64,000 bases of DNA from assembly GCA_018650465.1 (NCBI GenBank), contig JABIFY010000092.1, positions 15,477 to 79,476 of the forward strand, written 5' to 3'. The notes beneath the pieces are model-generated. The model was given only the letters and a program-made list of their open reading frames with translations, was not told where the DNA came from and made no database searches. A program made the translations under genes and the position numbers. Source of the stretch: Alphaproteobacteria bacterium. Its GTDB lineage: Bacteria > Pseudomonadota > Alphaproteobacteria > UBA2966. Positions 33,418 through 62,995 of the stretch are shown in pieces (position 1 is the first letter of the stretch; every line of letters begins with the position of its first letter).

Positions 33418-33419
33418 TC

Positions 33420-35251: not shown

Positions 35252-35352
35252 GCAACAAGTATCACGCAGGCGCGATATCTGCGACAATATACCACGTCGT
35301 TGCCGGGGTCGTTTTCATTTTCAATAGATCGGTCTGATCAAAAGAGGCCGAC

Positions 35353-36360: not shown

Positions 36361-36641
36361 ATACTGTCTGGACTATTCTGGAAGGTCAGCCAGGGCATCT
36401 CTGATTTCTTGTAGATTGCAGGGCTTGCGAATAATCGGAATGATGCCCCCAAATCTTCCTGGGTTTGTTCCATATTTTCATTACTATTCAAGGCCTTGAT
36501 GCCGCGCTGCGTTTTCAAAAGAGCCGCACAGACCAAACCAAATGATAATCTATTTTATCGACAAAGCATTGTTGCTCGCAGGATGAGTGCCGGATACTCT
36601 TGAATAGCTAATTCCCCAATAATTTCCTTCCGAAATACAAA

Positions 36642-37055
36642 ATGAAAATCCATATACATCAAATCTCCGTTGAGTGGGGCGATTGTGACCCTGCCGGCAT
36701 TGTATTTTATCCGAACTATTACCGCTGGATGGACGAAGCAACCTTTCATTTGTTTGACAGTGCAGGTTACGGTTGGACGGAAATTCGAGAAAAATTTGGC
36801 CCCCCCGGATTACCTTTGGTAGCCACACATGCGGAATATCGCATTCCAGGCTTTTTTGGTGACAAAATGAGTATCGAAGTCGGCGTTTCCGAATGGGGAA
36901 CCAAATCACTAACTGTGTCCCACCGCTTTATGAAAGACGGCAAGCTGGCAGTTGAAGGTTGGGAAAAGCGCATCTGGAGCGAGGGTGATCCGGGGGCCGG
37001 CAAAAAAATTGTAACGGCTCCCATCCCCGAAGAAGTGAAGGTCGCGCTGAGTTAA
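36642..37055 (+). CDS. 4HBT-fold acyl-CoA thioesterase (YbgC-like)
   Basis: Catalytic-region motif WGDCDPAGIVFYPNY (DxxGxV). Confidence 0.7.
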   Translation: MKIHIHQISVEWGDCDPAGIVFYPNYYRWMDEATFHLFDSAGYGWTEIREKFGPPGLPLVATHAEYRIPGFFGDKMSIEVGVSEWGTKSLTVSHRFMKDGKLAVEGWEKRIWSEGDPGAGKKIVTAPIPEEVKVALS

Positions 37056-37084
37056 ACCGGATCATTGAATCAAGGACAGGAATT

Positions 37085-41565: not shown

Positions 41566-42968
41566 CGGGCACGACAACGAACCTCGACACCGGTGAAATG
41601 ATGGCTCTTTATGCCAGCGGCGACTTGTCTCCAGTGACAGTTGCTGAGGATCTGTTTGTGAGTATCGAAAAACAGGAACCGGTTCTGAATGCTTTCCAGG
41701 TGCTGGACCAGGAAGCCGCCCTGTCACAGGCACGTGCCAGTGAAGCACGATGGCACCGCGGTAAACCGATGGGCGATCTTGATGGTGTGCCGGTCAGTAT
41801 CAAGGAACTGATCCTGACAAAAGGCTGGCCAACCCGGCAAGGGTCGCTGACGACGGACGCTGATCAGGCCTGGGATGTTGATGCGCCTGCCGTTGCCCGG
41901 TTACGTGAAGCAGGGGCTGTATTGTTTGGAAAAACTACTTCTCCTGAATTTGGCTGGAAGGGAATAACAGACAGTCCTTTAAGTGGCGTCACCCGAAACC
42001 CGTGGAACCCGGATTATTCCCCTGGAGGTTCCAGTGGCGGGGCAGGAGCTGCCGTCGCTGCCGGTCTCGGGCCCCTGGCCCTGGGGACAGATGGCGGCGG
42101 TTCGATACGAATACCTGCCAGTTATTGCGGTTTGTTCGGCATTAAACCGACATTCGGCCGGGTGCCTTCCTGGCCTCAGGACAGTGCTTATTCGACATTG
42201 GTCAGCAGTGGCCCTCTGTCGCGTAACGTTGCTGACGCGGCCCGCATGTTGAATGTCATTACACGACCGGATTATCGCGACTGGTATGCCTTGCCGCCGG
42301 AAAAAGTGGACTACCTCGATCAACTGTCACGTCGCGTAAAGGGTTTACGTATTGGATACAGTCCATCTCTGGGCGGGGCCAAAGTGACGCCAGAAGTTGC
42401 CGGGATTGTTGCAAAAGCCATTGATACCTTCGCTGATCTGGGTGCTCACGTTGAGATCGTCGACGACATCATTGAGCCCTTGCGCCCCAGGTTTGAAGAC
42501 TATTGGGTTGCCGGATTTGCAGCTATTTATCGCAATGTACCGGTTGGCATGCGGGATCACCTGGACCCTGGTTTCAGGAAACTTGCCGAACGAGGTTTAT
42601 CAGTTGATCTGGAAGGGTATTACAAGGGACTTGCGGCGAGGGTAACGCTGGCAGAAGAATTCAGCCGTTTTTACGAAAATCATGATTTGTTAATGACCCC
42701 GACCATGCCATCCACTGCGCCCAAAGCCGATGTTATCTACCATTCCGAAACATTCGATCGCTGGAATGATGCGGTTCCATATACCGTCCCGTTCAACCTG
42801 ACAGGGTTGCCCGCAGCTTCCGTTCCGGCTGGACTTGATTCAAGGCAACTCCCTGTCGGCCTGCAAATTGTTGGCCCCAGGTTTGCCGAGTTTCGCATTT
42901 TGGCGGCAGCCGCCGCTTTTGAGCAGGTCAGACCATTTCCGACACTGCTGAAACCAGGCAACGACTGA
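41562..42968 (+). CDS. Amidase-signature family amidase
   Basis: GGSSGGAGAAVAAG signature and Ser-cisSer-Lys triad context. 4-nt overlap with iorB. Confidence 0.8.
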   Translation: MTGTTTNLDTGEMMALYASGDLSPVTVAEDLFVSIEKQEPVLNAFQVLDQEAALSQARASEARWHRGKPMGDLDGVPVSIKELILTKGWPTRQGSLTTDADQAWDVDAPAVARLREAGAVLFGKTTSPEFGWKGITDSPLSGVTRNPWNPDYSPGGSSGGAGAAVAAGLGPLALGTDGGGSIRIPASYCGLFGIKPTFGRVPSWPQDSAYSTLVSSGPLSRNVADAARMLNVITRPDYRDWYALPPEKVDYLDQLSRRVKGLRIGYSPSLGGAKVTPEVAGIVAKAIDTFADLGAHVEIVDDIIEPLRPRFEDYWVAGFAAIYRNVPVGMRDHLDPGFRKLAERGLSVDLEGYYKGLAARVTLAEEFSRFYENHDLLMTPTMPSTAPKADVIYHSETFDRWNDAVPYTVPFNLTGLPAASVPAGLDSRQLPVGLQIVGPRFAEFRILAAAAAFEQVRPFPTLLKPGND

Positions 42969-46006: not shown

Positions 46007-46139
46007 TCTTGATCTGTTGAAAAACCCAGATATTCCATACATTTATTGTTGATGTCGGTTTATTTGCTGGTCCCGTTGTCAGCAGGTGGTTTTTCGTGGG
46101 AAAACACAGGTTCTGAATATAGAAGAGGATGCAGGTAGT

Positions 46140-47567
46140 ATGCTGATCAACGGAAATTGGACCGAAGCCCCTGAAGGCGCTTTGTTTGACGTTATTAACC
46201 CGGCAAATGGAGACGTGGTGGGGCAAGTGCCGGATGGTAATGCAGCATCTGCCCGATCCGCCATTGAAGCGGCTGCGGCTGCCTTTGGTTCCTGGTCAAA
46301 AACTACTGCACATGCCAGATCTGCAATCCTTTACAAGGCCTGGCAACTGATGCTGGAGCGCAAGGAGGACCTGGCCCGGACGATGACGCTGGAGCAGGGA
46401 AAACCGCTGCGTGCGGCGACGACCGAAGTTCAGTATGCAGCTGATTTTCTGCTTTGGTTCGCCGAAGAAGCAAAGCGAAGCTATGGGGAAACCATCCCCT
46501 CGGCCCGGGCCGATCAACGCTTTATTGTATCTCATTATCCGGTTGGTGTGGTTGCCGCGATTACGCCGTGGAATTACCCCGTTTCCATGATTACCCGAAA
46601 AGTGGGCCCGGCGTTGGCTGCGGGCTGTACCGTTGTATTAAAACCGGCTGAGGCCACACCGCTGTGTGCAATCAAGGTTTTCGAAATATTGACAGAAGCT
46701 GGCCTGCCTGACGGTGTCATCAACCTTGTAACAACAAGCAATCCAGCACCGGTGGGCGAAGAATTTGTTTCCAACCCCCTGGTGCGGAAACTCACCTTCA
46801 CCGGCTCGACCGCTGTCGGCAAGATGCTGGCTGGCAAAGCTGCCGGCAACATGAAGCGTGTGTCCTGTGAATTGGGCGGCCATGCGCCGTTTCTGGTATT
46901 TGATGACGCTGACCCGGTACACGCGGCCAAGGGCGTGCAGTTGGTGAAATTTCTGAACACCGGCCAGGCTTGCATCAGTCCTAACCGTATATTTGTGCAC
47001 CAGTCCAAAGTCGATGCCTTTGTCGATACCCTGCAATCGCGGGTCGCGAACATGAAGGCGGGCTCAGGCATGGAAGATGGTGTGACCATCGGACCACTTG
47101 TTGATGAGCGCGCCGTTGCCAAGGTTTCTGCCCAGGTCGATGATGCCGTCGCCAAGGGAGCTGAAGTCGTTTGCGGCGGTAATCGGTTGCTTTCCAACGG
47201 ACTGGAAAAAGGATTCTTTTATGCACCAACGGTGCTTAGGGGTGTGACGCCGGACATGTTGATCTACCGCGAGGAAACTTTTGGACCGGTCGCCCCGATC
47301 ATCACCTTTGACGATGATCAGGAAGCGCTGAAAATGGCAAATGATACAAATTATGGCCTCGCGGCTTATGTTTACACACGCGATATCTCACGCGCCATGC
47401 GCATGTTTGAAGCGCTGGAATTTGGCATTATCGGGGTGAACGATATTAACCCCAGCGCCGCATCGGCACCGTTTGGCGGCATGAAGGACAGTGGTCTTGG
47501 CCGCGAGGGCAGTCGTGAAGGTATGGCTGAATATCTTGAAACCAAACTGGGTGGCTTCGCGATTTAG
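46140..47567 (+). CDS. NAD(P)-dependent aldehyde dehydrogenase (succinate-semialdehyde-dehydrogenase-like)
   Basis: MLINGNWTEAP...VINPANGDV N-terminus. ELGGHAP and catalytic Cys (QACISPNR) are present. Confidence 0.8.
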   Translation: MLINGNWTEAPEGALFDVINPANGDVVGQVPDGNAASARSAIEAAAAAFGSWSKTTAHARSAILYKAWQLMLERKEDLARTMTLEQGKPLRAATTEVQYAADFLLWFAEEAKRSYGETIPSARADQRFIVSHYPVGVVAAITPWNYPVSMITRKVGPALAAGCTVVLKPAEATPLCAIKVFEILTEAGLPDGVINLVTTSNPAPVGEEFVSNPLVRKLTFTGSTAVGKMLAGKAAGNMKRVSCELGGHAPFLVFDDADPVHAAKGVQLVKFLNTGQACISPNRIFVHQSKVDAFVDTLQSRVANMKAGSGMEDGVTIGPLVDERAVAKVSAQVDDAVAKGAEVVCGGNRLLSNGLEKGFFYAPTVLRGVTPDMLIYREETFGPVAPIITFDDDQEALKMANDTNYGLAAYVYTRDISRAMRMFEALEFGIIGVNDINPSAASAPFGGMKDSGLGREGSREGMAEYLETKLGGFAI

Positions 47568-49952: not shown

Positions 49953-50825
49953 ATGATTAATACATTGACTGGGAGGGAAGTTCTGTTGCGTTATTTCCTG
50001 CCGGATACGGTTGCTGAGGCGACCGCCGGACTAGCTGAAAAAAATTATCGGATCGTTGCGGGCGGCACGGATTTTTACCCCGCCCTGGCTGATCAGCCTG
50101 TGCGCGACGACGTCATGGATATTTCCGGCCTGCAAGCTTTGCGCGGCATCGCCCGGGAAACCAAACACACCCGCATTGGTGCCCTTGCCACCTGGACAGA
50201 TATTGCCCGGGCGGAGCTGCCAAATAAATTCCGCGGCCTGCAACTGGCGGCGCGTGAAGTGGGGGCTTTGCAAATACAGAATGTGGCGACCGTTGCAGGC
50301 AATCTTTGCAATGCCTCGCCCGCGGCGGACGGCGTGCCGCCCCTGTTGACCCTGAATGCGCAAGTCGAAATCTCCGCTGCGAACGGCCAGCGTGTTTTAC
50401 CGCTGGATCAGTTCATCCTTGGCAACAGGCGCACGGCGCTGGAGCCAAATGAAATGCTGACCGCCATTTTGATCCCGAATGATGCAGAAGCGGCAAACAG
50501 TCATTTTATGAAACTGGGCTCCCGGCAATATCTGGTTATCTCCTACGTCATGGTGGCGACTTTGCTGGAAGCAGACGATTCCGGCATTATCACCCAGGCC
50601 CGGGTTTCGGTTGGCGCCTGTTCCGAGGTGGCGTGCCGTCTTGCCGATCTTGAAGCGGCACTCGTTGGGCAACCCTTGACAACGACCAGTGCTGTCGTGC
50701 GGCCCGACCATCTGTCCATCCTTGCGCCCATCGATGATATTCGGGCGTCGGCTGATTATCGCCTGGCGGCAGCGTTGGAATATACCAGGCGCAGCCTTTC
50801 GGCCTGTACGGAGGGTCTGTTATGA
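49953..50825 (+). CDS. Xanthine-dehydrogenase-family FAD-binding subunit (CoxM/XdhB-like)
   Basis: RIVAGGTDFYP FAD-binding motif and C-terminal CO-dehydrogenase flavoprotein domain. Confidence 0.8.
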   Translation: MINTLTGREVLLRYFLPDTVAEATAGLAEKNYRIVAGGTDFYPALADQPVRDDVMDISGLQALRGIARETKHTRIGALATWTDIARAELPNKFRGLQLAAREVGALQIQNVATVAGNLCNASPAADGVPPLLTLNAQVEISAANGQRVLPLDQFILGNRRTALEPNEMLTAILIPNDAEAANSHFMKLGSRQYLVISYVMVATLLEADDSGIITQARVSVGACSEVACRLADLEAALVGQPLTTTSAVVRPDHLSILAPIDDIRASADYRLAAALEYTRRSLSACTEGLL

Positions 50826-53581
50826 CATCACCTGGTACGAGTGGGTCTGTCGACTTTTCCCTGAACGGAAAACCGGTTTCAGTTTCCGTTGATCCCACGC
50901 GTCGGCTGTCACAAGTGCTGCGCGAAGACCTTGGTCAGACCGGCACCAAAATAGGTTGTAATGCGGGCGACTGCGGGGCCTGTACGGTGTTGGCCGATGG
51001 CCTTTCGGTTTGTGCCTGCATGGTACCTGTCGGGCGGTTGCAGGGTGCGCAAATCCAGACCGTGGAGGGATTGGCTGAAGCGGGCATTCCCAATCGACTG
51101 CAAAAAGCATTTTTGCATTTTGGCGCCGCCCAGTGTGGCATTTGTACGCCGGGTATGTTGATGGCGGCCACCGCATTGCTGGCGGAAAACGCCCGTCCCG
51201 ATGAAGCCCAGGTAAAAGACGCGCTGGGCGGTGTGCTTTGCCGCTGTACAGGATATCGCAAGATCATCCAGGCGGTGATGGCTGCCCATGATTTTGATGC
51301 CGAACCTTTGCGGGCTGAAACCGGCACGGCAGTGGGCACTCGCCTTAACCGGCTTGATGGTGAAGAAAAGGTTCTCGGCACAGATTTGTTTGGTGATGAC
51401 GTTGCTGGACAAGGTGCACTCGTCCTCAAGGTTATTCGCTCACCTTATCATCGGGCGTCATTTTCCTTCGGGGATACAGGCGGGTTACTGGTGACAACAC
51501 CTGGCCTGATCAAAATCCTGACCGCCAGCGATATTCCGGGCAGAAATTTACATGGCGTTATTCCGGATACTGTCGATCAACCAGTCTTTGCCGTGGCTGA
51601 AACCCGTTTCAAGGGCGAGGCGATTGCTGCCGTGGTTGGGGATGCCGACGCCGTGGACAAGTTTGATGTGTCGGACTTTCCCGTGACCTGGACGGAACGA
51701 CCCGCGTACCTGACGCCGGAAAAGGCTTTGGCTGACAATGCACCCCTGATACATGCCAACCGGCCCGGAAATATCCTGATGAACGGCATCGTGCAGCGCG
51801 GTGATCTGGCGGCCGGCTTCGCGCACAAAGACGCCACGATTGCCGAAGGCGATTTCATCACCGGCTTTGTTGAGCACGGTTATATTGAACCGGAAGCGGG
51901 CCTGGCCCAACGTGTGGGCGACCGACTTGAAATGCATGTTTGCACCCAGTCGCCCTATATGGATCGCGATGACACGGCAGCTATTCTTGGTATCGCCAAA
52001 GAAGATGTGCGCATCATACCGACGGCGGTTGGCGGTGGCTTTGGCAGCAAGCTTGATCTCTCGGTCCAGCCCTATATCGCACTGGCCGCCTGGTTGCTGG
52101 ATCGCCCTGTGCGCATGACCTACAGCCGCCAGGAAACCATGATGTCGACAACCAAACGACATCCTTCAGCCATCAAGGCCAGAATCTCTGCAGACAAACA
52201 GGGCAAGCTGTTATCCATGGATTTCAACGGCGTGTTCAACACCGGGGCCTATGCTTCGTGGGGACCGACGGTTGGCAATCGGGTGCCGGTACATGCCTCG
52301 GGTCCTTATATATATGATGCCTATCGCGCCCGCAGTCAGGCGGTGCATACCCATTGCGTGCCGTCCGGTGCCTTCCGGGGATTTGGTGTGCCGCAATCTT
52401 CCATTGTGCAGGAAACCCTGTTTGATGAACTGGCGGACAAGCTGGCCATTGATCGGCTGGACTTTCGTTTGCGCAACGCCCTGGTGAACGGTGCAACGAC
52501 GGTTTGTGGCCAGGTCTTCAGCGAAGGTGTGGGCATCAAGGATTGCCTGCAAAGTCTGAAACCCCATTGGGACCGGGCCTTGTCTGAAGCTGATGGTTTC
52601 AATGCCGCATCAGATGGCAGCTTGCGACGCGGTGTGGGTGTGGCGGGCATGTGGTACGGCTGTGGCAACACGTCGCTGCCCAATCCGTCGACCATCAAGG
52701 TTGCCATTCGCAATGATGGCCAGGTGGTTCTGTTCCAGGGTGCTGTGGATGTGGGGCAGGGGGCCAACACCGTTATCACACAAATCTGTGCTGATGCCGC
52801 AGGCCTGGACATCCTCAATTTTTCTCTTGTCTATGGTGATACCGATCTAACGGCGGACGCGGGTAAAACCTCAGCCTCACGCCAAACCTTTATCAGTGGC
52901 AAGGCGTCATACCTCGCGGGCCAGGATTTGCGCAAAAAAATCCTGCGTATGGTCAATGCCAGTGAAGATGCGCGCCTCGCCATTAATGGCAGCAAAATTA
53001 CCGCCATCGATACAGCCGGGCGAAATGATATCGATCTGGCTGCCTTGCCGGCGGATGAAGATGGATTTGTCTTTACTGGTGAAGGAACCTTTGATCCACC
53101 TACCGTGGCCCTCGATGAAAATGGCCAGGGTGAACCCTATGCGGTTTTTGGATATGGCGCACATATGATGGAACTGGAAGTCGATACCCGCCTGGGCACG
53201 GTACGCTTGATCAAGCTGACGGCCGCCCATGATGTGGGCAAAGCCATTAACCCAACCCTGATTGAAGGCCAGATCGAAGGCGGTGCAGCCCAGGGACTGG
53301 GCCTCGCTCTGATGGAAGAATTTGTGCCGGGCCGCACCGAAAATCTGCACGATTATTTGATTCCGACCATTGGCGATGTGCCCGAGGTGGAATCGATCCT
53401 TGTTGAAGTGCCCAACGCACATGGTCCTTACGGGGCCAAAGGCATAGGTGAACAAGTTCTGATCCCGACTGCGCCAGCCATCCTCAATGCCATCCGACAT
53501 GCCACGGGTGCGGTTTTACGGGATATGCCCGCAACGCCAGAAAAAGTGCGCAATGCAGTTTTGCGGGCGAAAGGGAATTAG
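50822..53581 (+). CDS. Xanthine-dehydrogenase-family fused [2Fe-2S] + molybdopterin-binding subunit
   Basis: N-terminal plant-type and second 2Fe-2S Cys motifs (CNAGDCGACTV; CGICTPG). Large aldehyde-oxidase/XDH Mo-binding body. 4-nt overlap with the FAD subunit. Confidence 0.8.
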   Translation: MTSPGTSGSVDFSLNGKPVSVSVDPTRRLSQVLREDLGQTGTKIGCNAGDCGACTVLADGLSVCACMVPVGRLQGAQIQTVEGLAEAGIPNRLQKAFLHFGAAQCGICTPGMLMAATALLAENARPDEAQVKDALGGVLCRCTGYRKIIQAVMAAHDFDAEPLRAETGTAVGTRLNRLDGEEKVLGTDLFGDDVAGQGALVLKVIRSPYHRASFSFGDTGGLLVTTPGLIKILTASDIPGRNLHGVIPDTVDQPVFAVAETRFKGEAIAAVVGDADAVDKFDVSDFPVTWTERPAYLTPEKALADNAPLIHANRPGNILMNGIVQRGDLAAGFAHKDATIAEGDFITGFVEHGYIEPEAGLAQRVGDRLEMHVCTQSPYMDRDDTAAILGIAKEDVRIIPTAVGGGFGSKLDLSVQPYIALAAWLLDRPVRMTYSRQETMMSTTKRHPSAIKARISADKQGKLLSMDFNGVFNTGAYASWGPTVGNRVPVHASGPYIYDAYRARSQAVHTHCVPSGAFRGFGVPQSSIVQETLFDELADKLAIDRLDFRLRNALVNGATTVCGQVFSEGVGIKDCLQSLKPHWDRALSEADGFNAASDGSLRRGVGVAGMWYGCGNTSLPNPSTIKVAIRNDGQVVLFQGAVDVGQGANTVITQICADAAGLDILNFSLVYGDTDLTADAGKTSASRQTFISGKASYLAGQDLRKKILRMVNASEDARLAINGSKITAIDTAGRNDIDLAALPADEDGFVFTGEGTFDPPTVALDENGQGEPYAVFGYGAHMMELEVDTRLGTVRLIKLTAAHDVGKAINPTLIEGQIEGGAAQGLGLALMEEFVPGRTENLHDYLIPTIGDVPEVESILVEVPNAHGPYGAKGIGEQVLIPTAPAILNAIRHATGAVLRDMPATPEKVRNAVLRAKGN

Positions 53582-53583
53582 TG

Positions 53584-55080
53584 ATGCCAGATGACAAAGA
53601 AGACCTCGTCGTTTGTGATGCCTGCCCGGTACGTTGTCGCATCAAACAAGGCCGCCCCGGTGCGTGCGATCGATATGCAAATGTTGATGGCCTGCTGACC
53701 CGCGTTGACCCGCTAACCGTGGTTGAACGGGCCGAAACCCACGGCACACCCCTGGTGCCTTTCCTGAAAAATGATCAGGAATGGAGCGGTGATCTGGTGC
53801 AGTCTGAAAACACCTTTGTCACTGCTGTGGGTGCTGGCACCACCTATCCCGACTATAAACCGGCCCCTTTCATAGTCTCCAGCGAGGTGGACGGTGTGGA
53901 TATGGTGACCGTGGTCACAGAAGGCATCTACAGCTACTGCGGCGTCAAGATCAAGGTCGATACAGATCGCCACCTGGGCCATGAAGCCGCCTCAGTACGG
54001 GTCGACGGCGAAGTCGTTGGCCATGTCACGACAGGTGAATACGGATCACAAATGATGTCCCTCGGCGGTGTTGCCCATCTGACCGGCGGCAGTAAAAAAG
54101 AAGGCCGCGTGACCTGTCAGACCCTGATGGATTTGTGCAATTGCAAGCCGGTCAAGCTGACGATTGATGACGGCGTGTCGATCATTGTTGAGGCCGGCAA
54201 GGCCCCGATCATTGATGACGTGACGGAGGAACGCATGCGCGTTGGTTGTGGCTCCGCCGCAATCGGTATGTTCGCCATGCAGTGGCAGCCCCTGGTCGAC
54301 GAAGTCGTTGTGGTAGATGATCACATCACCGGCGTGATGTCAGAACACGAAGCCGGAAAAGTTCTGGATGTACCGCCCACGGGTATTTCCATCAACGGCC
54401 GTCGCTCGACCCCCGGTCGCTATTTCAAGGTCGCCGAACCAGGTACGGGTTGGGGTGGTACAGATATCAGCGATCCCCTGTCGATCCTCAACGACTTTAA
54501 GCCAGCAGATGCCAAACCAGGCACAACCCTGTTGATGGTCTCGACCACCGGCGAACATTATGCTTATTTTGTGCTGGACGATAATCTGAAACCTGTCGAA
54601 GAACCCTTGCCGGATGTCTTGATGGCCTCGGTCGAACGGGTGCGGGAAAATTGTGAACCGGCATTATGTTCTGTGTTGTTCATTGGCGGTGCCGGTGGCT
54701 CGCTTCGGGCAGGCGTTACCGAAAATCCCGTCAAGCTGACCATGTCCGTGAAGGACGCCTTGACCAATGTTACCAGCGGCGGAGCGGAAACCTTTGTCTG
54801 GCCTGGCGGGGGCATTACCTACATGGTCGACGTGACGCGCATGCCTGAAAATTCCTTTGGTTATGTCCCCACACCGGCCATCGTCGCCCCCATCGAATTT
54901 TCCATGCGTCTTGAAGATTACGCGGCCCTGGGTGGCCATATGGAGTCGATTGTGCCTTTGGCCGAGGTGCTAAAGGATCCGAACCTTCGTCCTGTGGAAC
55001 AGGGCGAAAGTTCCTGGCCCATGGAAAAGAGCCAGTATAAATGGCCAGATGAGCAAAAAGACGAGCGCAAAGATGAATAG
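53584..55080 (+). CDS. Cys-rich conserved protein, possible 6-hydroxynicotinate-reductase (Hnr)-like
   Basis: N-terminal CDACPVRCRIKQGRPGACDRY Cys cluster. No other fold recognisable by eye. Starts 3 nt after the Mo-subunit stop. Confidence 0.45.
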   Translation: MPDDKEDLVVCDACPVRCRIKQGRPGACDRYANVDGLLTRVDPLTVVERAETHGTPLVPFLKNDQEWSGDLVQSENTFVTAVGAGTTYPDYKPAPFIVSSEVDGVDMVTVVTEGIYSYCGVKIKVDTDRHLGHEAASVRVDGEVVGHVTTGEYGSQMMSLGGVAHLTGGSKKEGRVTCQTLMDLCNCKPVKLTIDDGVSIIVEAGKAPIIDDVTEERMRVGCGSAAIGMFAMQWQPLVDEVVVVDDHITGVMSEHEAGKVLDVPPTGISINGRRSTPGRYFKVAEPGTGWGGTDISDPLSILNDFKPADAKPGTTLLMVSTTGEHYAYFVLDDNLKPVEEPLPDVLMASVERVRENCEPALCSVLFIGGAGGSLRAGVTENPVKLTMSVKDALTNVTSGGAETFVWPGGGITYMVDVTRMPENSFGYVPTPAIVAPIEFSMRLEDYAALGGHMESIVPLAEVLKDPNLRPVEQGESSWPMEKSQYKWPDEQKDERKDE

Positions 55081-56173
55081 CGCTTTTGCCCGCATTTTGC
55101 CCGACGGCAAACGCCTGCATTTGCAGCAAGGCCCCATTGATCTGGTGATCGATGCAGATGGCGATGAGGCTGAAGTTGCCTTGGCTTTTGAGCAGGCGAT
55201 GCGGGCCTTCGAGCCTGTGTTGACGGATTTGGTAGCGGAATTGGAAGTGTTGCGGAAGGTCCTGGCGCCACACTCCTCTACCGTCATGCGCGGGCTTGAC
55301 CCGCGTACCCACGCCTTCGGGGAACAGGTCTGCCAGAAGGCGAATTTCCTGAGTTCTGCATCATCCTCAAATGACCAGAGTTCTGCGCCTGAAGATAAAT
55401 GCCGTCAAGACGTGGGTACCCGTGTCAAGCACGGGCATGACGGACGTGGGGTGCAGTTTTACGATCCGAATAAATCCAATCCTGTCGCGAACATCATGAC
55501 ATCCGCCGCAGCCAACTTCGCAGCCCACAACGTCAGCCCCATGATCGCCGTCGCCGGGTCCGTCGCCGACTACATCCTGGATAAAATGCTGGCAGGGCGA
55601 ACGCTGAATCGAGTCTACGTCAATAACGGTGGCGATATATCACTGTATCTGAACGACGGCCACAGCTTTGATATCGGTATCGTCGACCGGGTTGATGCAC
55701 CCGAAATTTCCGCCACGGCTCATATCACATCCAATGACACCGTTCGTGGCGTCGCGACCAGCGGCTGGAGAGGACGCAGTTTCTCGCTTGGTGTGGCTGA
55801 CGCGGTAACCGTCCTTGCCCCGACGGCGGCTCTGGCAGACGCTGCCGCAACTCTGATCGCCAATGAAGTTGATCCCGGCCCTTGTTTTGAAATTTCCCGC
55901 ACGCCGGCCCATGACCTGGACCCCGACAGTGACCTCGGCGCACGACTGGTGACAACCGATGTCCAGCCTTTGTCGGCCCGGCAAAAAGACCTGGCCCTGC
56001 AACGCGGTCAGGACCTGGCCCGGACTTTTGTTCGGGACGGTTTGATCACGGCTGCTGCCTTGTCCCTGCAGGGCAGTACGCGCATGGCCGGGGACCTCAA
56101 TCCCAAAATTAGTCTCAATAACAACGTTGCCCCAAACAATCCTGATCCGGAGAAAAAATATGCCCGCGGTTGA
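55073..56173 (+). CDS. Conserved hypothetical protein (C-terminal region possibly UPF0280/ApbE-like)
   Basis: ATG overlaps the upstream stop by 8 nt. Segment PMIAVAGSVADYILDKM...VYVNNGGDISL is weakly reminiscent of UPF0280. Confidence 0.35.
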   Translation: MNSAFARILPDGKRLHLQQGPIDLVIDADGDEAEVALAFEQAMRAFEPVLTDLVAELEVLRKVLAPHSSTVMRGLDPRTHAFGEQVCQKANFLSSASSSNDQSSAPEDKCRQDVGTRVKHGHDGRGVQFYDPNKSNPVANIMTSAAANFAAHNVSPMIAVAGSVADYILDKMLAGRTLNRVYVNNGGDISLYLNDGHSFDIGIVDRVDAPEISATAHITSNDTVRGVATSGWRGRSFSLGVADAVTVLAPTAALADAAATLIANEVDPGPCFEISRTPAHDLDPDSDLGARLVTTDVQPLSARQKDLALQRGQDLARTFVRDGLITAAALSLQGSTRMAGDLNPKISLNNNVAPNNPDPEKKYARG

Positions 56174-56744
56174 ACTCAGAAAACAAATCATATCCGTCGA
56201 GGAAACCTGGCACGAAGGTGGCCCGGTTGCACAAACACCCAACCGCCGGGCCAGTGGCATGATCATCATCAAAAATCCCTTCGCCGGAAAATATGTGGAA
56301 GATATCCAGCCTTTCATTGAAGATCTGAAACCCTTTGGTCTGGCCCTGGCGACTGCTGTGCTGGATGCTCTGGGTGGCGATGGTTCTGCCATTGAAGGTT
56401 ATGGCAAGGGTGCCATCATCGGCGAGGCCGGAGAGCTGGAGCATGGTGCCCTGTGGCATCCCGCCGGTGGTTATGCCATGCGGGCCCTGTTGGATGGCAC
56501 CAAGGCCATTGTTGCCTCAACCAAAAAAGTTGGTGGGGTCGGGGCCCGGCTGGATGTACCGATCACCCATACCAATGCATCTTATGTGCGCAGTCATTTT
56601 GATGCCATGGAAGTGGGCTGCAATGATGCGCCGCGCGCCAACGAGCTGGCCTACATACTGGTCATGAGCACCGGACCCCGCGTCCACAGCCGGTCTGGCG
56701 GTCTGGAAGTAGCCGACGTTAAAGGAGAGGATGGATTAAAATGA
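56160..56744 (+). CDS. Amino-acid-synthesis family (PF06684/DUF1185-like) protein, paralogue 1
   Basis: Shared motifs with the downstream paralogue: NPFAG, GELEH, YVRSHFDAMEV, NDAPRANE. Confidence 0.45.
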   Translation: MPAVELRKQIISVEETWHEGGPVAQTPNRRASGMIIIKNPFAGKYVEDIQPFIEDLKPFGLALATAVLDALGGDGSAIEGYGKGAIIGEAGELEHGALWHPAGGYAMRALLDGTKAIVASTKKVGGVGARLDVPITHTNASYVRSHFDAMEVGCNDAPRANELAYILVMSTGPRVHSRSGGLEVADVKGEDGLK

Positions 56745-57328
56745 CTACTGCAATAATTCGCAAGATCATCACTGTTGTCGACGAAACTCACATTGAAATG
56801 GGCAAGGCCATCTCGCCCGCAACCCGGCGGGCTGCGGCCATCGCCGTCATCGCCAACCCCTTTGCGGGCAGCTATACGGAAGACCTCGATCCTCTGATGG
56901 AAATCGGTGCGGAGCTGGGCGGTATATTGGGCGCGCGCGCCGTTGAGGCTTTGGGGATCACGCCGGAGCAGGCCGAGAGCTATGGCAAAGCGGCCATCGT
57001 TGGTGAAAATGGTGAGTTGGAACATGCAGCTGCAATTTTACATCCCAAACTGGGTGCCCCCTTGCGCAAGGCCGTCGAAAAGGGTGCTGCTCTGGTGCCT
57101 TCTGCCAAGAAGATGGGCGGTCCTGGTACGCCCATGGATGTGCCCCTCGGTCACAAGGAAGCCGCCTATGTGCGCAGCCATTTCGATGCCATGGAAGTGC
57201 GCGTCAATGATGCCCCGCGGGCCAATGAAATTCTGGTCGCCGTTTGTGTCACGGACAGCGGGCGGCCTTTGCCAAGGGTCGGTGGTCTGACCCATGAAGA
57301 TGCCGAAGGCAAAGACGGCTTGCGCTAG
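56741..57328 (+). CDS. Amino-acid-synthesis family (PF06684/DUF1185-like) protein, paralogue 2
   Basis: About 45-50% identical to paralogue 1 over the full length. 4-nt overlap. Confidence 0.45.
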   Translation: MTTAIIRKIITVVDETHIEMGKAISPATRRAAAIAVIANPFAGSYTEDLDPLMEIGAELGGILGARAVEALGITPEQAESYGKAAIVGENGELEHAAAILHPKLGAPLRKAVEKGAALVPSAKKMGGPGTPMDVPLGHKEAAYVRSHFDAMEVRVNDAPRANEILVAVCVTDSGRPLPRVGGLTHEDAEGKDGLR

Positions 57329-57342
57329 GCTGGACCCCGAAT

Positions 57343-58401
57343 ATGCAATTCATCCATAACAGCTGGTACGTGGCAGGTTGGTCGAAAGAGTTCACGCGTG
57401 AGCTAAGCAAAGCCACGATCCTTGGCGAAAACATCGTCTTCTACCGCACTGAAGCCGGCACCGTTACGGCCCTGGAAGATCGTTGTCCGCATAAACTGTT
57501 GCCTTTGTCCGAAGGTCGGTTGATCGGTGATGATTTGCAGTGCGGTTATCACGGCGTGACCTTTGGCTGCGACGGTAAATGTGTGCGGGTGCCGGGCCAA
57601 TCAGTGCTGCCTAAAAGCGCCTGGGTGCGCCACTTCCCCACGTTCGAGCGTCACAATATTGTCTGGATCTGGATGGGTGATGAGGGCAAAGCGGATGAAA
57701 GTCTGGTCTTTGATTTGCCGGAACTTTCCAGTCCTGACTATGCGCCGCACCAGGGCAATCCGCTGCCTTATGCCTCAAACTATCTGAATGTGGCCGACAA
57801 TCTGTGCGACCCGGCCCATGTCAGTTTCGTGCACCCGACAACGCTGGGCAATCCTGAGATGGAGGATTTGCCTATTGATTCCGAAATGACGGGGGATGGC
57901 ACAGTGATTACCTCGCGCTGGACCCGCGATACCCCGCCTGTGGGTGTGTTTCAGGGACTGTCGGGCTTTGGCGTGAATTTCCGGGGCAACGTAGATCGCT
58001 GGCAATATTACATCATGAATGTGCCGTGTGTGGCCGTGATCGATTTTGGCAGTGCTGAGGTCTCGCAAGAAATAACTTATGACCGACGGGCGGAAGGTGT
58101 GCATATATATGCCATTCATTTTCTGACGCCCGTGGACGAGTTCCGCACGATTGATCGTTGGATGCATGTGCGAAATTTTGCTCTGCAGGACAAAGCCGTC
58201 GGTGGTGCCATGAATGATCTTTTTAATGTGGCCTTCGCCGAAGATAAAGTTATCCTCGAGGCGATCCAGATTGAGGAACGCCGCCCCAGATCAGCTGAGC
58301 AAGAACAACGACGGCCCTTGCGCATTGCTATCGACAAGGGATCAAACCTCTATCGTCGTCGTATTGATGAGTTGATCAAACAGGAACAGGTGAATGACTG
58401 A
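57343..58401 (+). CDS. Rieske non-haem iron oxygenase alpha subunit, VanA/GbcA/NdmA family
   Basis: Rieske CPHK...CGYHG, mononuclear-Fe motif DNLCDPAHVSFVH. Colinear with the vanillate O-demethylase oxygenase N-terminus (WYVAG...IVFYR...ALEDRCPH). Confidence 0.75.
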   Translation: MQFIHNSWYVAGWSKEFTRELSKATILGENIVFYRTEAGTVTALEDRCPHKLLPLSEGRLIGDDLQCGYHGVTFGCDGKCVRVPGQSVLPKSAWVRHFPTFERHNIVWIWMGDEGKADESLVFDLPELSSPDYAPHQGNPLPYASNYLNVADNLCDPAHVSFVHPTTLGNPEMEDLPIDSEMTGDGTVITSRWTRDTPPVGVFQGLSGFGVNFRGNVDRWQYYIMNVPCVAVIDFGSAEVSQEITYDRRAEGVHIYAIHFLTPVDEFRTIDRWMHVRNFALQDKAVGGAMNDLFNVAFAEDKVILEAIQIEERRPRSAEQEQRRPLRIAIDKGSNLYRRRIDELIKQEQVND

Positions 58402-58819
58402 AGATCGGAAAGGCTACGCCCTGGACGATCAGGTCGGGTTTATCCTGCGCGAAGTTGGCCAGCGCCACAGCACGATTTTTGCGGGCAAGATGATTGAGCG
58501 CCTCACGCCCACCCAGTTTGCCGCCATGGCCAAGCTGATCGAGGTCGGTGATTGTTCGCAAAATCAACTGGGCCGCCACACAGCGATGGATGTGGCCACG
58601 ATCAAGGGCGTTGTGGATCGTTTGGCCAAGCGCGGATTTGTGGACAGTCATGCCGACGACAAAGACGCCCGCCGCCGTATCGTTTGCCTGACCGATACGG
58701 GTCGCGATGTGGCCTTGCGGGCCATCCAGGTTGCGGGAGACATCACCCGGGAAACATTGAAACCCTTGTCAGAAGCCGGGCAAAAACAGCTGCTGAAGCT
58801 GTTGAGGGAATTACGTTAA
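58394..58819 (+). CDS. MarR family transcriptional regulator
   Basis: Winged-helix segment LTPTQFAAMAKL...QNQLGRHTAMDVATIKGVVDRLAKRGFV...DARRR. Confidence 0.75.
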   Translation: MTEDRKGYALDDQVGFILREVGQRHSTIFAGKMIERLTPTQFAAMAKLIEVGDCSQNQLGRHTAMDVATIKGVVDRLAKRGFVDSHADDKDARRRIVCLTDTGRDVALRAIQVAGDITRETLKPLSEAGQKQLLKLLRELR

Positions 58820-58867
58820 TCGGGCATTCTGGCCCAAATCAAAATAGCATGACAGGGAAGTAATATA

Positions 58868-59974
58868 ATGAAAACACGTGCAGCCATCGCCACCCAGGCC
58901 GGAAAACCGCTTGTTATTGAAGAAGTCGATCTGGACGGACCACAGCCCGGCGAGGTTCTGGTTGAAATCAAGGCGACAGGCGTTTGTCACACGGATGCTT
59001 TCACCCTGTCTGGCGATGATCCGGAAGGGGCCTTTCCGGCGATCCTGGGTCACGAAGGGGCCGGTATTGTGCGGGAAATTGGCAAAGGCGTAACTTCCGT
59101 GGAAGTGGGCGATCATGTGATCCCGCTTTACACGCCCGAGTGCCGGGAATGCGAATACTGCCTCAATCACAAGACCAATCTTTGTCAGTGCATTCGGGAA
59201 ACCCAGGGTGCGGGGGTCATGCCCGATGGCTCCAGCCGCTTTTCCCTGAACGGCAAAAAAATCCTGCATTATATGGGCTGTTCTACCTTTTCGAATTTTA
59301 CCGTGTTGCCGGAAATTGCCGTCGCCAAGGTGCGTAAAGACGCGCCGTTTGAACAAATTTGTTATATCGGTTGCGGTGTCACAACCGGCGTCGGGGCCGT
59401 CGCCCTGGATGCCAAGGTCGAGCCCGGCTCCAACGTCGTGGTCTTTGGCCTCGGCGGCATTGGCCTGAATGTGGTGCAGGGTGCGCGCATGGTGGGGGCC
59501 AACAAGATTATCGGCGTCGATCTGAATGATGGCCGGGTGGAGTTGGCGAAAAAATTCGGCATGACCGACTTCATCAACCCCAGTGAATGCGACAATGTTG
59601 TCGAAGCCATCATGGATATGACCAATGGGGGTGCTGATTATTCCTTCGAATGTATCGGCAATACCATGACCATGCGTCAGGCCCTGGAATGCTGTCACAA
59701 GGGTTGGGGCGAAAGCATCATCATTGGCGTCGCTGGTGCCGGTCAGGAAATTTCCACGCGCCCGTTCCAGCTGGTTACCGGCCGGGTCTGGCGTGGTACA
59801 GCCTTTGGCGGCGCCCGTGGCCGGACTGATGTGCCAAAGATTGTCGACTGGTACATGGACGGCAAAATCAACATCGACGACTTGATCACCCACACCATGC
59901 CGTTGGATGAAATCAACAATGCTTTCGATCTGATGCACAAGGGCGAGTCAATTCGCTCTGTTGTTTTGTATTAG
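58868..59974 (+). CDS. frmA: S-(hydroxymethyl)glutathione dehydrogenase / class III alcohol dehydrogenase
   Basis: Colinear with ADH3 ([50 protein letters not shown]). Confidence 0.85.
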
Positions 59975-60014
59975 GAACGATTATTTTTGGCGACTACTCT
60001 GGGGGGAAAGAACA

Positions 60015-61172
60015 ATGTCTAAACTTGTCATCAAAAATATCGGCCTGGTGCTCAGTGGCGATCTGGATAATCCGGTGTTGGATGCGGACACTATCGCCAC
60101 AGAAGATGGCAAGATCACCGGCATTGGGGCTGAGAAAGACTTTGATCAGGAAGGGGCCACGGTCGTTGATGCCAAAGGCACGACTGTCACCCCCGGTCTG
60201 ATCGACAGCCATGTGCACCCGGTCGCGGGCGACTGGACCCCACGTCAAAGCCAGCTCAACTGGATCGATTCAAGCTTGCATGGTGGCGTCACCACCATGA
60301 TCTCGGCCGGCGAGGTGCACTATCCAGGACGGGCCAAGGATATCGTTGGCCTGAAAGCGCTGGCGATCACGGCGCAGCGAGCCTTTGATAATCTGCGCCC
60401 CTCGGGGGTCAAGGTGCATGCCGGTGCGCCGGTCATTGAACAGGGCATGGTCGAACAGGATTTCAAAGAGTTGGCCGAGGCTGGCGTAAAACTGCTGGGT
60501 GAAATTGGCCTGGGCAGCGTCAAGGCCGGGGCGGAGGCCAAACAGATGGTCACCTGGGCCCGAAAATATGGCATTCAAAGTACCATCCACACCGGTGGCC
60601 CTTCCATTCCAGGCTCTGGCCTGATCGACAAGGACGTGGTGCTGGAAGCTGATGCCGATATCATCGGCCACATCAATGGCGGGCACACGGCTTTGCCTGA
60701 CGACCAGATCACCTGTCTTTGTGAAAGCTGCGGTCGTGGCATCGAAATCGTGCATAACGGCAACGAGCGCTCCGCTCTGCTGGCCCTGAATTGCGCTCGT
60801 GAACTGAAGCAGATGGAACGCGTTATCCTTGGCACGGACGGCCCGGCTGGTTCCGGTGTACAGCCCTTGGGAATTTTGCGTATGGTGTCCATGTTGTCAG
60901 CCCTGGGCCAGGTGCCCGCAGAAATCGCCCTGTGTTTTGCCACCGGCAATACGGCCCGCATGCGTGATCTGAATTGCGGCATTATCGAAGTCGGACGTGA
61001 GGCCGATTTTGTGATTATGGACCGGGCCCAGCATTCTCCGGCGGAAACCATTCTGGAGAGTATCCAGCTTGGTGATCTGCCGGGCGTCGGCATGACCATT
61101 ATTGATGGTGTCATCCGCAGCGAACGCAGCCGCAATACCCCACCCGCCAACACCCTGCCCGAAGTAATCTAG
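60015..61172 (+). CDS. Amidohydrolase-superfamily protein, enamidase-like
   Basis: MSKLVIKNIGLVLSGD N-terminus. Metal-binding HVHPV. Size and layout are consistent with the single-domain amidohydrolase group that includes enamidase. Strong SD (GGGGGGAAAG) upstream. Confidence 0.55.
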   Translation: MSKLVIKNIGLVLSGDLDNPVLDADTIATEDGKITGIGAEKDFDQEGATVVDAKGTTVTPGLIDSHVHPVAGDWTPRQSQLNWIDSSLHGGVTTMISAGEVHYPGRAKDIVGLKALAITAQRAFDNLRPSGVKVHAGAPVIEQGMVEQDFKELAEAGVKLLGEIGLGSVKAGAEAKQMVTWARKYGIQSTIHTGGPSIPGSGLIDKDVVLEADADIIGHINGGHTALPDDQITCLCESCGRGIEIVHNGNERSALLALNCARELKQMERVILGTDGPAGSGVQPLGILRMVSMLSALGQVPAEIALCFATGNTARMRDLNCGIIEVGREADFVIMDRAQHSPAETILESIQLGDLPGVGMTIIDGVIRSERSRNTPPANTLPEVI

Positions 61173-61285
61173 CTATCTGTTATTAAACAATAAATCAAAT
61201 ATCTGGCGACAAGGCTTGAACCGGACCCGTAATCAGGTTTGAATCGTTCAAAATCCCTTTCCTTCGAAACCCACAGGACCCCGTC

Positions 61286-62995
61286 ATGCGTAAACATTTG
61301 ACCCTCAATCTTGCCACCCGCGACGCCAGCAGCAAAACTGTTGAAGGCGAAGACCTGGCCCGTGCCGGGCGCTGGTTGATCGCCCGCACGTTGCTGGACG
61401 AAGGTGCGGCGACCGTTGATCCCCTGTCGCCAGGTAACCCGCTGATTTTTTCTGCCGGTCCGTTTGCAGGCACCAACTTCTCCAATGCCAACCGTTTGTC
61501 TGTAGGCTGCAAAAGCCCGCTGACCGGTGGCATCAAGGAAGCGAACTCTGGTGGTACATTCGCTTACGCCATGGGCCAGAACGAAATGTCCGGCATTACC
61601 TTCTGCGAGGCTTCGGACGATTGGGTTGTCATCCACATCAACAAAGAAGGCGATGTAACTTACGATGATGCCACGCCTTACATGGGCAAAAGCAACTTCG
61701 AAGCCGCCGATATGCTGATCGAAAAATACGGCAAGAAAATCTCCTATGCCCTGTGCGGTCCCGTCGGCGAATACCAGGGCCTGATGTCGGCCATCGCTTT
61801 CCCCGATCCTGAAGGTGGCCCAACCCGCTTTGCCGCCCGTGGTGGCGTGGGCGCCGTGATGGGCAGCAAAAAGGTCAAGGCTGTGATCATCGAACAGATC
61901 AAGATGCCAACCTTTGTGGACCGTAAAAAGGTCATGAGCCACGTCAAGGACTATGGTGCCAAACTGGGCGAGGAAGCCGCTATTCAAACTTTTGCTGATT
62001 ACGGCACCGCCATTGTGGCCGACCTCACCAACAAGATCGGCGGGCTGCCGGTGAACAATTTCAGCAAGGGCCAGCAGGTCAACTCCAAGGAACAAACCTT
62101 CGAGATGGGCGGCACCTTTATTCACGACCTGAACAAATCCCGTGGCGGCGAAACGACCCACGCCTGCATGCCGGGCTGCTTGATCCGTTGCAGCAATAAC
62201 TTTCATGGTGAAGACGGCGAATCCATTACCGCCCCGCTGGAATATGAAACCATCGGCTTGATGGGTACCAACTGTGGTCTGACCCACCCCGACCAGGTGG
62301 CGCGGGTCAACCAGGTGGCCAATGATTTGGGCATCGATACCATCGAAATCGGTTGCACCATCGGCGTACTGATGGAAGCAGGCGAGGGCGAATTTGGTGA
62401 CGAAGCCTTTATGATGCAGGTGCTGGAAGATATCCGCGCTGGCAATGAAAAGGGCAAACTATATGCGCAAGGCACCCAGCGGGTCGGCGAACATTTTAAC
62501 GTCAAACGCATTCCCGCCATCAAGAAACAAGGCATCAGTGCCTATGACCCGCGTGTGATCGAGGTCACAGGTATGAGCATGATGTTAACCGCCCAGGGCG
62601 CGGATCATACGGCCGGAAACATGCCGGGCTATCCTTGCAAAGACAAGACCACCGAAGACCTGATGGCCGTCAGCATGGACAGCCAAATGAACTGCGCCGC
62701 CGCCGACAGCCTCGGCCTGTGCATCTTTGGTCGCTCGGTGACCGAAACCAATTCCCAGCTGATCGTCGATGCCATCAACGCCGCCTTTGGCACCAGCCTG
62801 GAGCCATCCTTCGTGCCGAAACTGGGCACTGCCGCCCTGAAACTGGAAGACGAGTTCAACCGCGCCGCTGGCTTCACCGCAGCCGACGACGAACTGCCTG
62901 ACTTCTTCAACACCGAAGCGCTTGCCCCCACCGGCAAAACCAACCGCCACCAGGTGGGCGACCTGCATACCTTCCGCGAAAACTGGTGGAATTAA
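61286..62995 (+). CDS. Aldehyde:ferredoxin oxidoreductase (AOR) family tungsto/molybdo-pterin enzyme
   Basis: AOR N-terminal domain (LIFSAGPFAGT, SVGCKSPLTGG, RGGVGAVMGSKKVKAVII). 4Fe-4S and pterin region (HACMPGCLIRCSN, LEYETIGLMGTNCGL). Confidence 0.75.
   Translation: MRKHLTLNLATRDASSKTVEGEDLARAGRWLIARTLLDEGAATVDPLSPGNPLIFSAGPFAGTNFSNANRLSVGCKSPLTGGIKEANSGGTFAYAMGQNEMSGITFCEASDDWVVIHINKEGDVTYDDATPYMGKSNFEAADMLIEKYGKKISYALCGPVGEYQGLMSAIAFPDPEGGPTRFAARGGVGAVMGSKKVKAVIIEQIKMPTFVDRKKVMSHVKDYGAKLGEEAAIQTFADYGTAIVADLTNKIGGLPVNNFSKGQQVNSKEQTFEMGGTFIHDLNKSRGGETTHACMPGCLIRCSNNFHGEDGESITAPLEYETIGLMGTNCGLTHPDQVARVNQVANDLGIDTIEIGCTIGVLMEAGEGEFGDEAFMMQVLEDIRAGNEKGKLYAQGTQRVGEHFNVKRIPAIKKQGISAYDPRVIEVTGMSMMLTAQGADHTAGNMPGYPCKDKTTEDLMAVSMDSQMNCAAADSLGLCIFGRSVTETNSQLIVDAINAAFGTSLEPSFVPKLGTAALKLEDEFNRAAGFTAADDELPDFFNTEALAPTGKTNRHQVGDLHTFRENWWN

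Follow-up and report, generated by a model that had tools for sequence, protein, structure and literature searches.

What is an aldehyde oxidoreductase (AOR) of the tungsten/molybdenum type doing directly downstream of an enamidase gene, at the end of a catabolic cluster, in a bacterium with O2-dependent enzymes? The question is raised by a 64,000-nucleotide stretch of DNA from an Alphaproteobacteria bacterium (UBA2966; assembly GCA_018650465.1, contig JABIFY010000092.1, positions 15,477 to 79,476 of the forward strand; hereafter the window), in which an AOR-family gene occupies positions 61286-62995. The initial annotation had suggested that this enzyme oxidises the aldehyde released by ring hydrolysis, for example a formyl-dicarboxylate. 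This is the reading that the evidence supports best, given the enamidase neighbour, the known enamidase product (S)-2-formylglutarate (PMC9304392), and the association of the two genes in three AOR subclades. On balance, the gene content suggests that the AOR most probably acts on the aldehyde to which enamidase gives rise, oxidising either 2-formylglutarate or glutarate semialdehyde and passing the electrons to a ferredoxin-level acceptor.

The gene is intact, with the open reading frame exactly as first annotated, and is resolved into two domains:

61286-62995, forward strand: AOR/WOR-family large-subunit gene with an ATG start, encoding 569 aa (Pfam, PDB match, fold and substitution rates)
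61292-61894, forward strand: AFOR_N domain (PF02730), residues 3-203, Pfam E=4.9e-49
61943-62980, forward strand: AFOR_C domains 2 and 3 (PF01314), residues 220-565, Pfam E=2.9e-56

Both Pfam matches span nearly the whole profiles. A PDB-wide sequence search returned the AOR of P. furiosus (PfAOR; 1aor) as the top match (E=5e-52, residues 5-557, 180 bits), followed by two bacterial AORs (9g7j and 9mqx), Haloferax WOR83 (9q1t, 141 bits), formaldehyde oxidoreductase (FOR; 1b25, 133 bits), Aromatoleum AorB (8c0z, 131 bits), WOR5, and BamB (54 bits). An AlphaFold2 model built with 42 homologues as input (predicted local distance difference test score 85.3, predicted template modelling score 0.89) matched 1aor, 9g7j, 9mqx, and 1b25 in Foldseek with a template modelling (TM) score of 0.87, and BamB with 0.78; outside the family, Foldseek gave no match with E < 0.04. 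By every sequence and fold criterion tested, the protein is thus a genuine AOR/WOR-family member. It is also under strong purifying selection: relative to the orthologue in the closest genome (L001, 85% amino acid identity), the nonsynonymous rate (dN) is 0.103 and the synonymous rate (dS) 1.20, giving dN/dS of 0.086. At least 23 contigs encode this very protein; they come from several samples, among them JGI 3300024324 and 3300024302 and ENA ERZ27250236.

The landmarks of a working active site are present. We transferred PfAOR numbering via a HMMER alignment, using published residue lists (PMC12096430, PMC13328260), and place the following features by alignment:

62006-62008, forward strand: T241, second-shell residue corresponding to PfAOR T243
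62159-62191, forward strand: predicted [4Fe-4S] cysteine motif, H292-A-C294-MPG-C298-LIR-C302
62246-62248, forward strand: E321, second-shell residue corresponding to PfAOR E313, in an EYE motif
62321-62338, forward strand: first pterin motif, N346-DLGI-D351, corresponding to PfAOR D338-ELGL-D343
62543-62545, forward strand: Y420, second-shell residue corresponding to PfAOR Y427, in AYDPR
62606-62608, forward strand: H441, second-shell residue corresponding to PfAOR H448, in the clade-specific AQGADHT
62705-62722, forward strand: second pterin motif, D474-SLGL-C479, corresponding to PfAOR D489...C494

The second-shell residues of aldehyde-oxidising family members are PfAOR T243, E313, Y427, and H448 (PMC13328260), and their four counterparts are invariant in a 42-sequence alignment. 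Within AFOR_N, residues R70, N87, and R181 align to PfAOR R76, N93, and R182. Family members are recognised by two pterin motifs of the form DXXGL(C/D)X, and both motifs are found here; the asparagine at the first position of the first one is shared with 9g7j, 9mqx, and WOR83. The initial annotation had seen the N-terminal and Fe-S/pterin landmarks, and the AFOR_N domain, both pterin motifs, the cysteine cluster, and the second-shell residues bear it out.

The cysteine spacing, CX3CX3C, is one residue longer than the canonical CX2CX3C. A word-indexed database search gave 7969 matches at E≤1e-10, of which we inspected the best 120; all 120 carry the CX3CX3C motif, as do 88 of the 89 homologues encoded in the retrieved loci, Thermus included. 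Residues C294, C298, C302, and C479, like the cofactor and catalytic motifs generally, are invariant across the clade as sampled by these best 120 of 7969 homologues, and C479 is the predicted fourth Fe-S ligand, matching PfAOR C494. Pairwise HMMER alignments give conflicting registers for the cysteines. An L-INS-i alignment with PfAOR and the C. autoethanogenum AOR places the triplet on C288, C291, and C295 and puts a single inserted residue between the first two cysteines. Beside the active-site histidine, the clade has AQGADHT where PfAOR has NRGGCHIK (R444->Q437, C447->D440, K450->A443).

The argument for function comes from the gene upstream. Enamidase hydrolyses 1,4,5,6-tetrahydro-6-oxonicotinate (THON) to (S)-2-formylglutarate and ammonia (PMC9304392), and AOR and enamidase genes are adjacent in 13 loci when truncated loci and the window are counted (window, L001, L020, L041, L047, L088, L089, L091, L092, L096, L109, L116, and L120). 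Three arrangements occur. In the window and L001, the enamidase-AOR pair closes the cluster, with gaps of 114-117 bp. Loci L020, L041, and L047 have the order AOR, TetR, enamidase, FAD subunit, molybdenum subunit, and 6-hydroxynicotinate reductase (Hnr). The L088 group has MarR, enamidase, AOR, FAD subunit, molybdenum subunit, Hnr, and UPF0280; here the AOR lies within the operon, and the gaps measure 151-273 bp. Neighbour-joining resolves the enamidase-linked AORs into three separate subclades, among which unlinked genes are interspersed. We estimate the chance adjacency of two given families at about 1 in 1000 per lineage, and three independent adjacencies, each at this chance, argue for a functional connection.

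Several observations weigh against tying the AOR closely to this pathway. Loci were counted as informative if flanked on both sides by at least 3 kb (AOR, 57 loci) or at least 2 kb (enamidase, 33 loci). Enamidase is present in just 4 of the former (53 of 57 are without it), and an AOR in just 7 of the latter (26 of 33 are without it). Close relatives of the cluster, such as L081 and L084, have no AOR. The window AOR is the last gene in the cluster, beyond a 113-bp spacer possibly with its own promoter, and an alternative catalyst for the step could be the NAD-type aldehyde dehydrogenase encoded at 46086-47567, which lies 2.4 kb upstream of the cluster. A six-frame search found the CxxCxxCxxxC ferredoxin motif in no frame of the window. 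Convergent specificity residues were not found in the enamidase-linked AORs, which share three weak positions only (226, 282, and 434).

The AOR is neither dedicated to the nicotinate pathway nor required by it. Given that most AOR and most enamidase loci are unlinked and that there is no residue signature, it is an accessory gene that has been recruited repeatedly, and the substrate range of its product is probably broad. In the enamidase clusters that have no AOR, no other conserved aldehyde-oxidising gene was found; an aldehyde dehydrogenase homologue was present in one locus only.

The alternative that survives best is a generalist aldehyde detoxification enzyme, as proposed for PfAOR and for BmWOR of Brevibacillus massiliensis, which came to lie at the cluster edge by chance. 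We think this possible, if somewhat unlikely. It would account for the 53 of 57 informative family loci unconnected to enamidase, for the missing specificity signature in the linked copies, and for the wide variety of neighbouring genes (TPR-sulfotransferase, pirin, redoxin, AMP-ligase, GlcDEF, and UbiD together with an MttB-family gene). The Thermus homologue TTP0122 stands alone beside a CRISPR module, and the characterised Class I enzymes are broad in substrate (PMC13328260). In the Granulosicoccaceae loci L058, L060, and L061, GlcD/GlcE/GlcF-like genes (FAD-linked oxidase, FAD-binding subunit, and CCG Fe-S subunit), located about 4 kb upstream, directly precede the AOR homologue; their products would yield glyoxylate, another carboxylated aldehyde. 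The varied contexts of the clade are consistent with a generalist aldehyde oxidiser and prove no more. Chance placement, however, is very unlikely to produce enamidase adjacency in three subclades and three gene orders, and in one group the AOR is embedded between the enamidase and hydroxylase genes. The generalist alternative also overlaps with the pathway role that we prefer, because a broad-range enzyme would oxidise the pathway aldehyde anyway.

The presence of a Rieske demethylase and a class III alcohol dehydrogenase (ADH3) inserted in the same cluster, in both the window and L001, raises a second alternative, in which the AOR is a FOR-like enzyme that shares with the glutathione-dependent dehydrogenase the task of clearing the formaldehyde produced by the VanA-type demethylase. 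FOR belongs to the AOR family, and the fold match to 1b25 has a TM score of 0.87. We nevertheless consider this improbable. In the L088 and L020 groups the AOR is beside enamidase, whereas VanA and ADH3 were not matched within 10 kb, and the VanA-containing loci L087, L098, L125, and L129 have no AOR. Further, FOR scores below AOR proper (133 versus 180 bits), and the cluster already encodes a dedicated formaldehyde dehydrogenase.

A third alternative is chemistry that does not involve aldehyde oxidation, like the ring reduction of BamB or the activity of the sulfonate-oxidising WOR, with the enzyme acting on 6-hydroxynicotinate or THON, or operating in the acid-reducing direction. The family does include non-aldehyde enzymes (PMC13328260 Table 2), and near the cofactor the clade departs from PfAOR in the three substitutions by the histidine and in cysteine spacing. 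Yet all four second-shell residues typical of aldehyde oxidisers are kept, and BamB is the most distant solved relative by both sequence and fold. An Hnr orthologue is encoded in the AOR-containing clusters whose flanks reach that far, so no reductase step is missing; we judge non-aldehyde chemistry very improbable. The more specific idea that the AOR is itself the missing 6-hydroxynicotinate reductase is ruled out by the Hnr orthologue at 53584-55080. Finally, a degraded, silent, or non-catalytic AOR-like remnant, which the initial annotation had named as the outcome that would undo its proposal, is effectively refuted: nothing was found in its favour beyond a protein about 35 aa shorter than PfAOR and a window without partner or cofactor genes, whereas the frame is intact, a length of 569-573 aa is usual for the clade, and the same protein recurs across samples, and the low dN/dS and retained catalytic residues make the AOR neither a remnant nor an obviously non-catalytic paralogue.

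The oxidation of a pathway aldehyde, our preferred function, has to be viewed against the place of this protein in its family. The best 120 of the 7969 matches are 569-584 aa long and 62-93% identical to the window AOR, and those with a named organism are all proteobacterial metagenome-assembled genomes (MAGs). A scan of GTDB genomes yielded 80 AOR loci, from Alpha-, Beta-, and Gammaproteobacteria and Chloroflexota. A phmmer search of 1.84 billion representatives found 5241 family members, among which the clade at >50% identity is one full-length representative; about 90 more full-length representatives (540-600 aa) are 31-41% identical, and 81 of 89 have CX3CX3C. The clade comprises thousands of 90%-identity clusters. 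The sole cultured carrier that we found is Thermus thermophilus HB27, whose plasmid pTT27 encodes TTP0122 (570 aa, 50-51% identity, motif HACMPGCxIxCSN). This protein is of the same clade, has the same cysteine motif, and stands alone like the window AOR; unlike it, TTP0122 has no nicotinate genes nearby and adjoins a type III-B CRISPR module. Its mention in the literature is confined to a comparative-genomics paper (PMC1274311). By sequence comparison, the AOR represents a deep, populous, uncharacterised clade of ~570-aa single-subunit proteins, for which the nearest solved structure is the ~35%-identical PfAOR.

Neither an Fe-S partner (WorS/AorA-like) nor an FAD partner (AorC-like) recurs near the AOR homologues, either in an ORF clustering of the 80 loci or among 77 same-strand neighbours classified by Pfam. 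Class I WOR enzymes consist of WorL alone, and their four characterised members all reduce ferredoxin and have broad substrate ranges (PMC13328260). With partner subunit genes missing, the AOR fits Class I.

Several described subfamilies were considered and set aside. AOR sensu stricto is clade 87, comprising PfAOR and bacterial AorB at about 50% mutual identity (PMC6365974 Table 5); the window AOR is only 32-35% identical to PfAOR, against the roughly 50% needed, and matches AorB with only 131 bits. It is not the Mo-dependent YdhV of clade 41 (NCBIfam NF007354, 69 bits versus a cutoff of 868) or GAPOR (NF040818, 26.7 bits versus a cutoff of 1300). For WOR clade 83 (BmWOR and HvWOR83), the comparison was made with 9q1t, which is a weaker match than PfAOR (141 versus 180 bits) and has the canonical CX2CX3C spacing, so the AOR is not evidently a clade-83 enzyme. 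A three-subunit enzyme of the AorABC type was likewise rejected, as genes for the AorA polyferredoxin and the AorC FAD protein are missing in the window and among the recurrent neighbour families.

Comparison with studied enzymes shows both what is shared and what is distinctive. PfAOR (clade 87, Class I) has the same three-domain fold, both pterin motifs, the four cysteines, and the four second-shell residues, and is likewise a single catalytic subunit with no partner genes. The window AOR differs in its modest identity, a C-terminus ~35 residues shorter, the CX3CX3C motif, and the substitutions R444->Q, C447->D, and K450->A; its host is a bacterium with O2-dependent enzymes rather than a hyperthermophilic anaerobe, and it lies in a catabolic operon. 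The O2-tolerant Class I enzymes of clade 83, BmWOR and Haloferax WOR83, are also single-subunit proteins of O2-respiring hosts. The role proposed here is a step in catabolism, not the detoxification of food aldehydes. BmWOR uses ferredoxin and works in air, and clade 83 enzymes are mostly from aerobes (PMC9424855); together with the wide distribution of the AOR's own clade in Proteobacteria, this makes outdated the earlier remark that AORs are typical of anaerobes and archaea. A 2025 review counts one aerobic species known as an AOR producer (PMC12096430). Aromatoleum aromaticum AorABC (8c0z) resembles the window enzyme in being a proteobacterial AOR-family aldehyde oxidoreductase of aromatic degradation, but the AorB match is weak, and aorA and aorC neither adjoin the window AOR nor recur near its homologues; for this reason an NAD-linked nanowire architecture is not expected.

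If the favoured function is correct, the AOR would be a cytoplasmic, single-subunit, Class I-like enzyme equipped, as others of its family are, with one [4Fe-4S] cluster and a bis-pyranopterin centre that holds W or Mo, and it would work in the reductive catabolism of nicotinate or methyl-nicotinate. The Mo hydroxylase would form 6-hydroxynicotinate, the ferredoxin-dependent Hnr would reduce this to tetrahydro-6-oxonicotinate, and enamidase would open the ring to release 2-formylglutarate and ammonia. The AOR would then oxidise 2-formylglutarate, or its decarboxylation product glutarate semialdehyde, to the acid, toward glutarate, and two electrons would exit via the [4Fe-4S] cluster to a ferredoxin-level acceptor. 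The identity of the substrate, of the acceptor, and of the metal (W or Mo) is an inference, as is coupling of any kind to Hnr. In Azorhizobium, decarboxylation followed by oxidation reportedly leads to glutarate.

Hnr (EC 1.3.7.1) is ferredoxin-dependent, so the pathway needs low-potential electrons, and Hnr, two steps earlier, would be the natural consumer of those from the AOR. The acid/aldehyde couple lies near -580 mV. One could imagine an electron loop, in which AOR electrons are returned via ferredoxin to Hnr. Reductive dearomatisation would then be self-sufficient in O2-respiring marine bacteria, dispensing with an uphill NAD(P)H-to-ferredoxin step; two electrons in would balance two out, with the pathway's own aldehyde as donor. 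We find such a loop attractive but rather unlikely. Clusters without an AOR would, under this scheme, rely on a ferredoxin-NADP reductase beside enamidase, and we identified a gene for this enzyme divergent from enamidase in five clusters (Sulfitobacter mediterraneus plasmid P3, L162 10030-10839; L082, L083, L118, and L141), none of which has an AOR. The genes beside enamidase, AOR or ferredoxin-NADP reductase, are compatible with a supply of reduced ferredoxin to Hnr. As a corollary of the loop, Proteobacteria of ocean and soil would possess, in the very widespread CX3CX3C clade, an AOR lineage that is compatible with oxygen. Because tungstate is scarce in oxic seawater, the clade may use Mo. 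Genes for tupABC, modABC, moa/moe, and MoaD-like proteins were not found in the window ORFs scanned (those of at least 200 aa outside 26572-29915, and shorter ones in 38000-64000 only).

The AOR lies, as the initial annotation had placed it, at the end of a cluster that runs from a Mo hydroxylase (49953-53581) to an amidohydrolase, the enamidase (60015-61172). The genes of this cluster, and the spacer, are as follows:

49953-53581, forward strand: Mo hydroxylase, presumed nicotinate dehydrogenase, with an FAD subunit (49953-50825) and a fused 2x[2Fe-2S]/molybdopterin subunit (50822-53581)
53584-55080, forward strand: Hnr orthologue, 498 aa, with a Cys-rich N-terminus (64% identity to a RefSeq-named Sulfitobacter protein)
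55073-56173, forward strand: UPF0280/ApbE-like gene (NF003322, E=4e-97; precomputed PF27030 AbpE_bact)
56160-56744 and 56741-57328, forward strand: two PF06684 genes (DUF1185, 'amino acid synthesis'), part of the cluster core
57343-58401, forward strand: VanA-type Rieske demethylase/oxygenase, accessory to this cluster variant (Pfam)
58394-58819, forward strand: MarR-family regulator (Pfam), found in 36 of 80 enamidase loci
58868-59974, forward strand: ADH3, an S-(hydroxymethyl)glutathione dehydrogenase (TIGR02818, 631 bits versus a cutoff of 544)
60015-61172, forward strand: enamidase orthologue, directly upstream of the AOR (2vun, E=2.4e-114, full length)
61173-61285, forward strand: AT-rich enamidase-AOR spacer of 113 bp, partly conserved with L001

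The THON type is recognised by a Mo hydroxylase, Hnr, and enamidase encoded together, as they are in the window; among the 80 enamidase loci, many of them truncated, 28-41 have this core. By its genes, the cluster encodes the reductive THON-type nicotinate pathway of E. barkeri and Azorhizobium, which is oxygen-independent in design. The pathway proceeds by 6-hydroxylation, ferredoxin-dependent ring reduction to THON, and hydrolytic opening (PMC9304392), and in Azorhizobium it continues via glutarate (PMC3511419). The cluster had been described as aerobic-type; it is actually of a kind first found in an anaerobe, and as one of its own enzymes is already a reductase that depends on ferredoxin, the presence of a low-potential enzyme is less surprising than had been assumed. 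That the host itself uses O2 is clear from the Rieske oxygenase and the extradiol dioxygenases encoded in the window.

In Proteobacteria, the counterpart of the E. barkeri cluster encodes the first three enzymes, including an Hnr homologue, and two conserved unknown proteins (PMC3511419), and the window is syntenic with it in these genes. In E. barkeri, 2-formylglutarate is reduced by an NADH-dependent dehydrogenase, whereas in the window an AOR-family enzyme follows enamidase. The AOR is not among the listed genes of the published proteobacterial clusters (PMC3511419), and the window variant also differs from them in its extra Rieske demethylase and formaldehyde dehydrogenase. Besides the window, VanA is present in L001, L087, L098, L125, and L129, and ADH3 in L001 and L140. 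These two additions suggest that the cluster may really act on a methylated analogue of nicotinate, perhaps a pyridine carboxylate like trigonelline.

The other core genes offer further candidates. Where the region is present, a UPF0280/ApbE-like gene directly follows the Hnr gene (32 of 80 enamidase loci, many truncated; also L162 14518-15378). Hnr of E. barkeri reportedly carries covalently bound flavin, and the UPF0280/ApbE-like protein may be its flavin transferase. About 40 of the 80 enamidase loci have tandem PF06684 genes. The structures most similar to their products, 2qtp (E=1.7e-95) and 3byq, were deposited as uncharacterised. These proteins are candidate enzymes for the unassigned step that follows ring opening, such as a decarboxylation of 2-formylglutarate. 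On the source contig, a family III CoA-transferase gene lies about 5 kb past the AOR, outside the window (L163 16727-17815). Azorhizobium is said to activate glutarate by CoA transfer from succinyl-CoA, and this CoA-transferase could belong to the downstream route.

The spacer before the AOR retains two TTGAAyC blocks and an AGGA ribosome-binding site in comparison with L001, despite an AOR dS of ~1.2, and may hold a promoter or operator of the AOR's own. A simple scan found no terminator in the spacer, and a promoter and terminator scan near the AOR gave no signal over shuffled background. Downstream of the AOR is a histidine kinase gene on the opposite strand. Over window positions 56127-62995, the proteins of L001 (MAG SI054_bin61) are unevenly similar: enamidase 97%, ADH3 98%, DUF1185 93-94%, AOR 85%, VanA 85%, and MarR 78% identical. 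L001 also has about 4.7 kb of additional DNA between VanA and MarR. The mosaic divergence suggests recombination inside the cluster.

A physiological role has been defined for only 5 of 92 WOR clades (PMC13328260), and a large uncharacterised clade here gains a concrete candidate substrate and pathway. Conversely, the AOR is a candidate for the step of the Azorhizobium-type nicotinate route in which the aldehyde is oxidised; in our literature search we found no gene assigned to that step, and no paper tying an AOR-family enzyme to 2-formylglutarate or to the THON pathway. The claim is a modest one. The family, its chemistry, and the pathway core were already known, the linkage is found in a minority of genomes, and this is not a new kind of system. 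The finding raises the question of whether marine aerobes use the W or Mo version of the cofactor.

Elsewhere in the window, positions 37949-42968 encode an indolepyruvate/2-oxoacid:ferredoxin oxidoreductase-like pair (a TPP subunit and a POR + DUF6537 subunit), followed by an amidase; the pair is a second ferredoxin-type enzyme in an oxygenase-bearing organism. A meta-cleavage gene set (LigB, extradiol dioxygenase, DmpFG-like proteins, and hydratases) is encoded at 31666-37918. Three genes for EAL-domain proteins (c-di-GMP phosphodiesterases) with different sensor domains lie within 22 kb, at 373-1578, 7415-8623, and 21691-22542.

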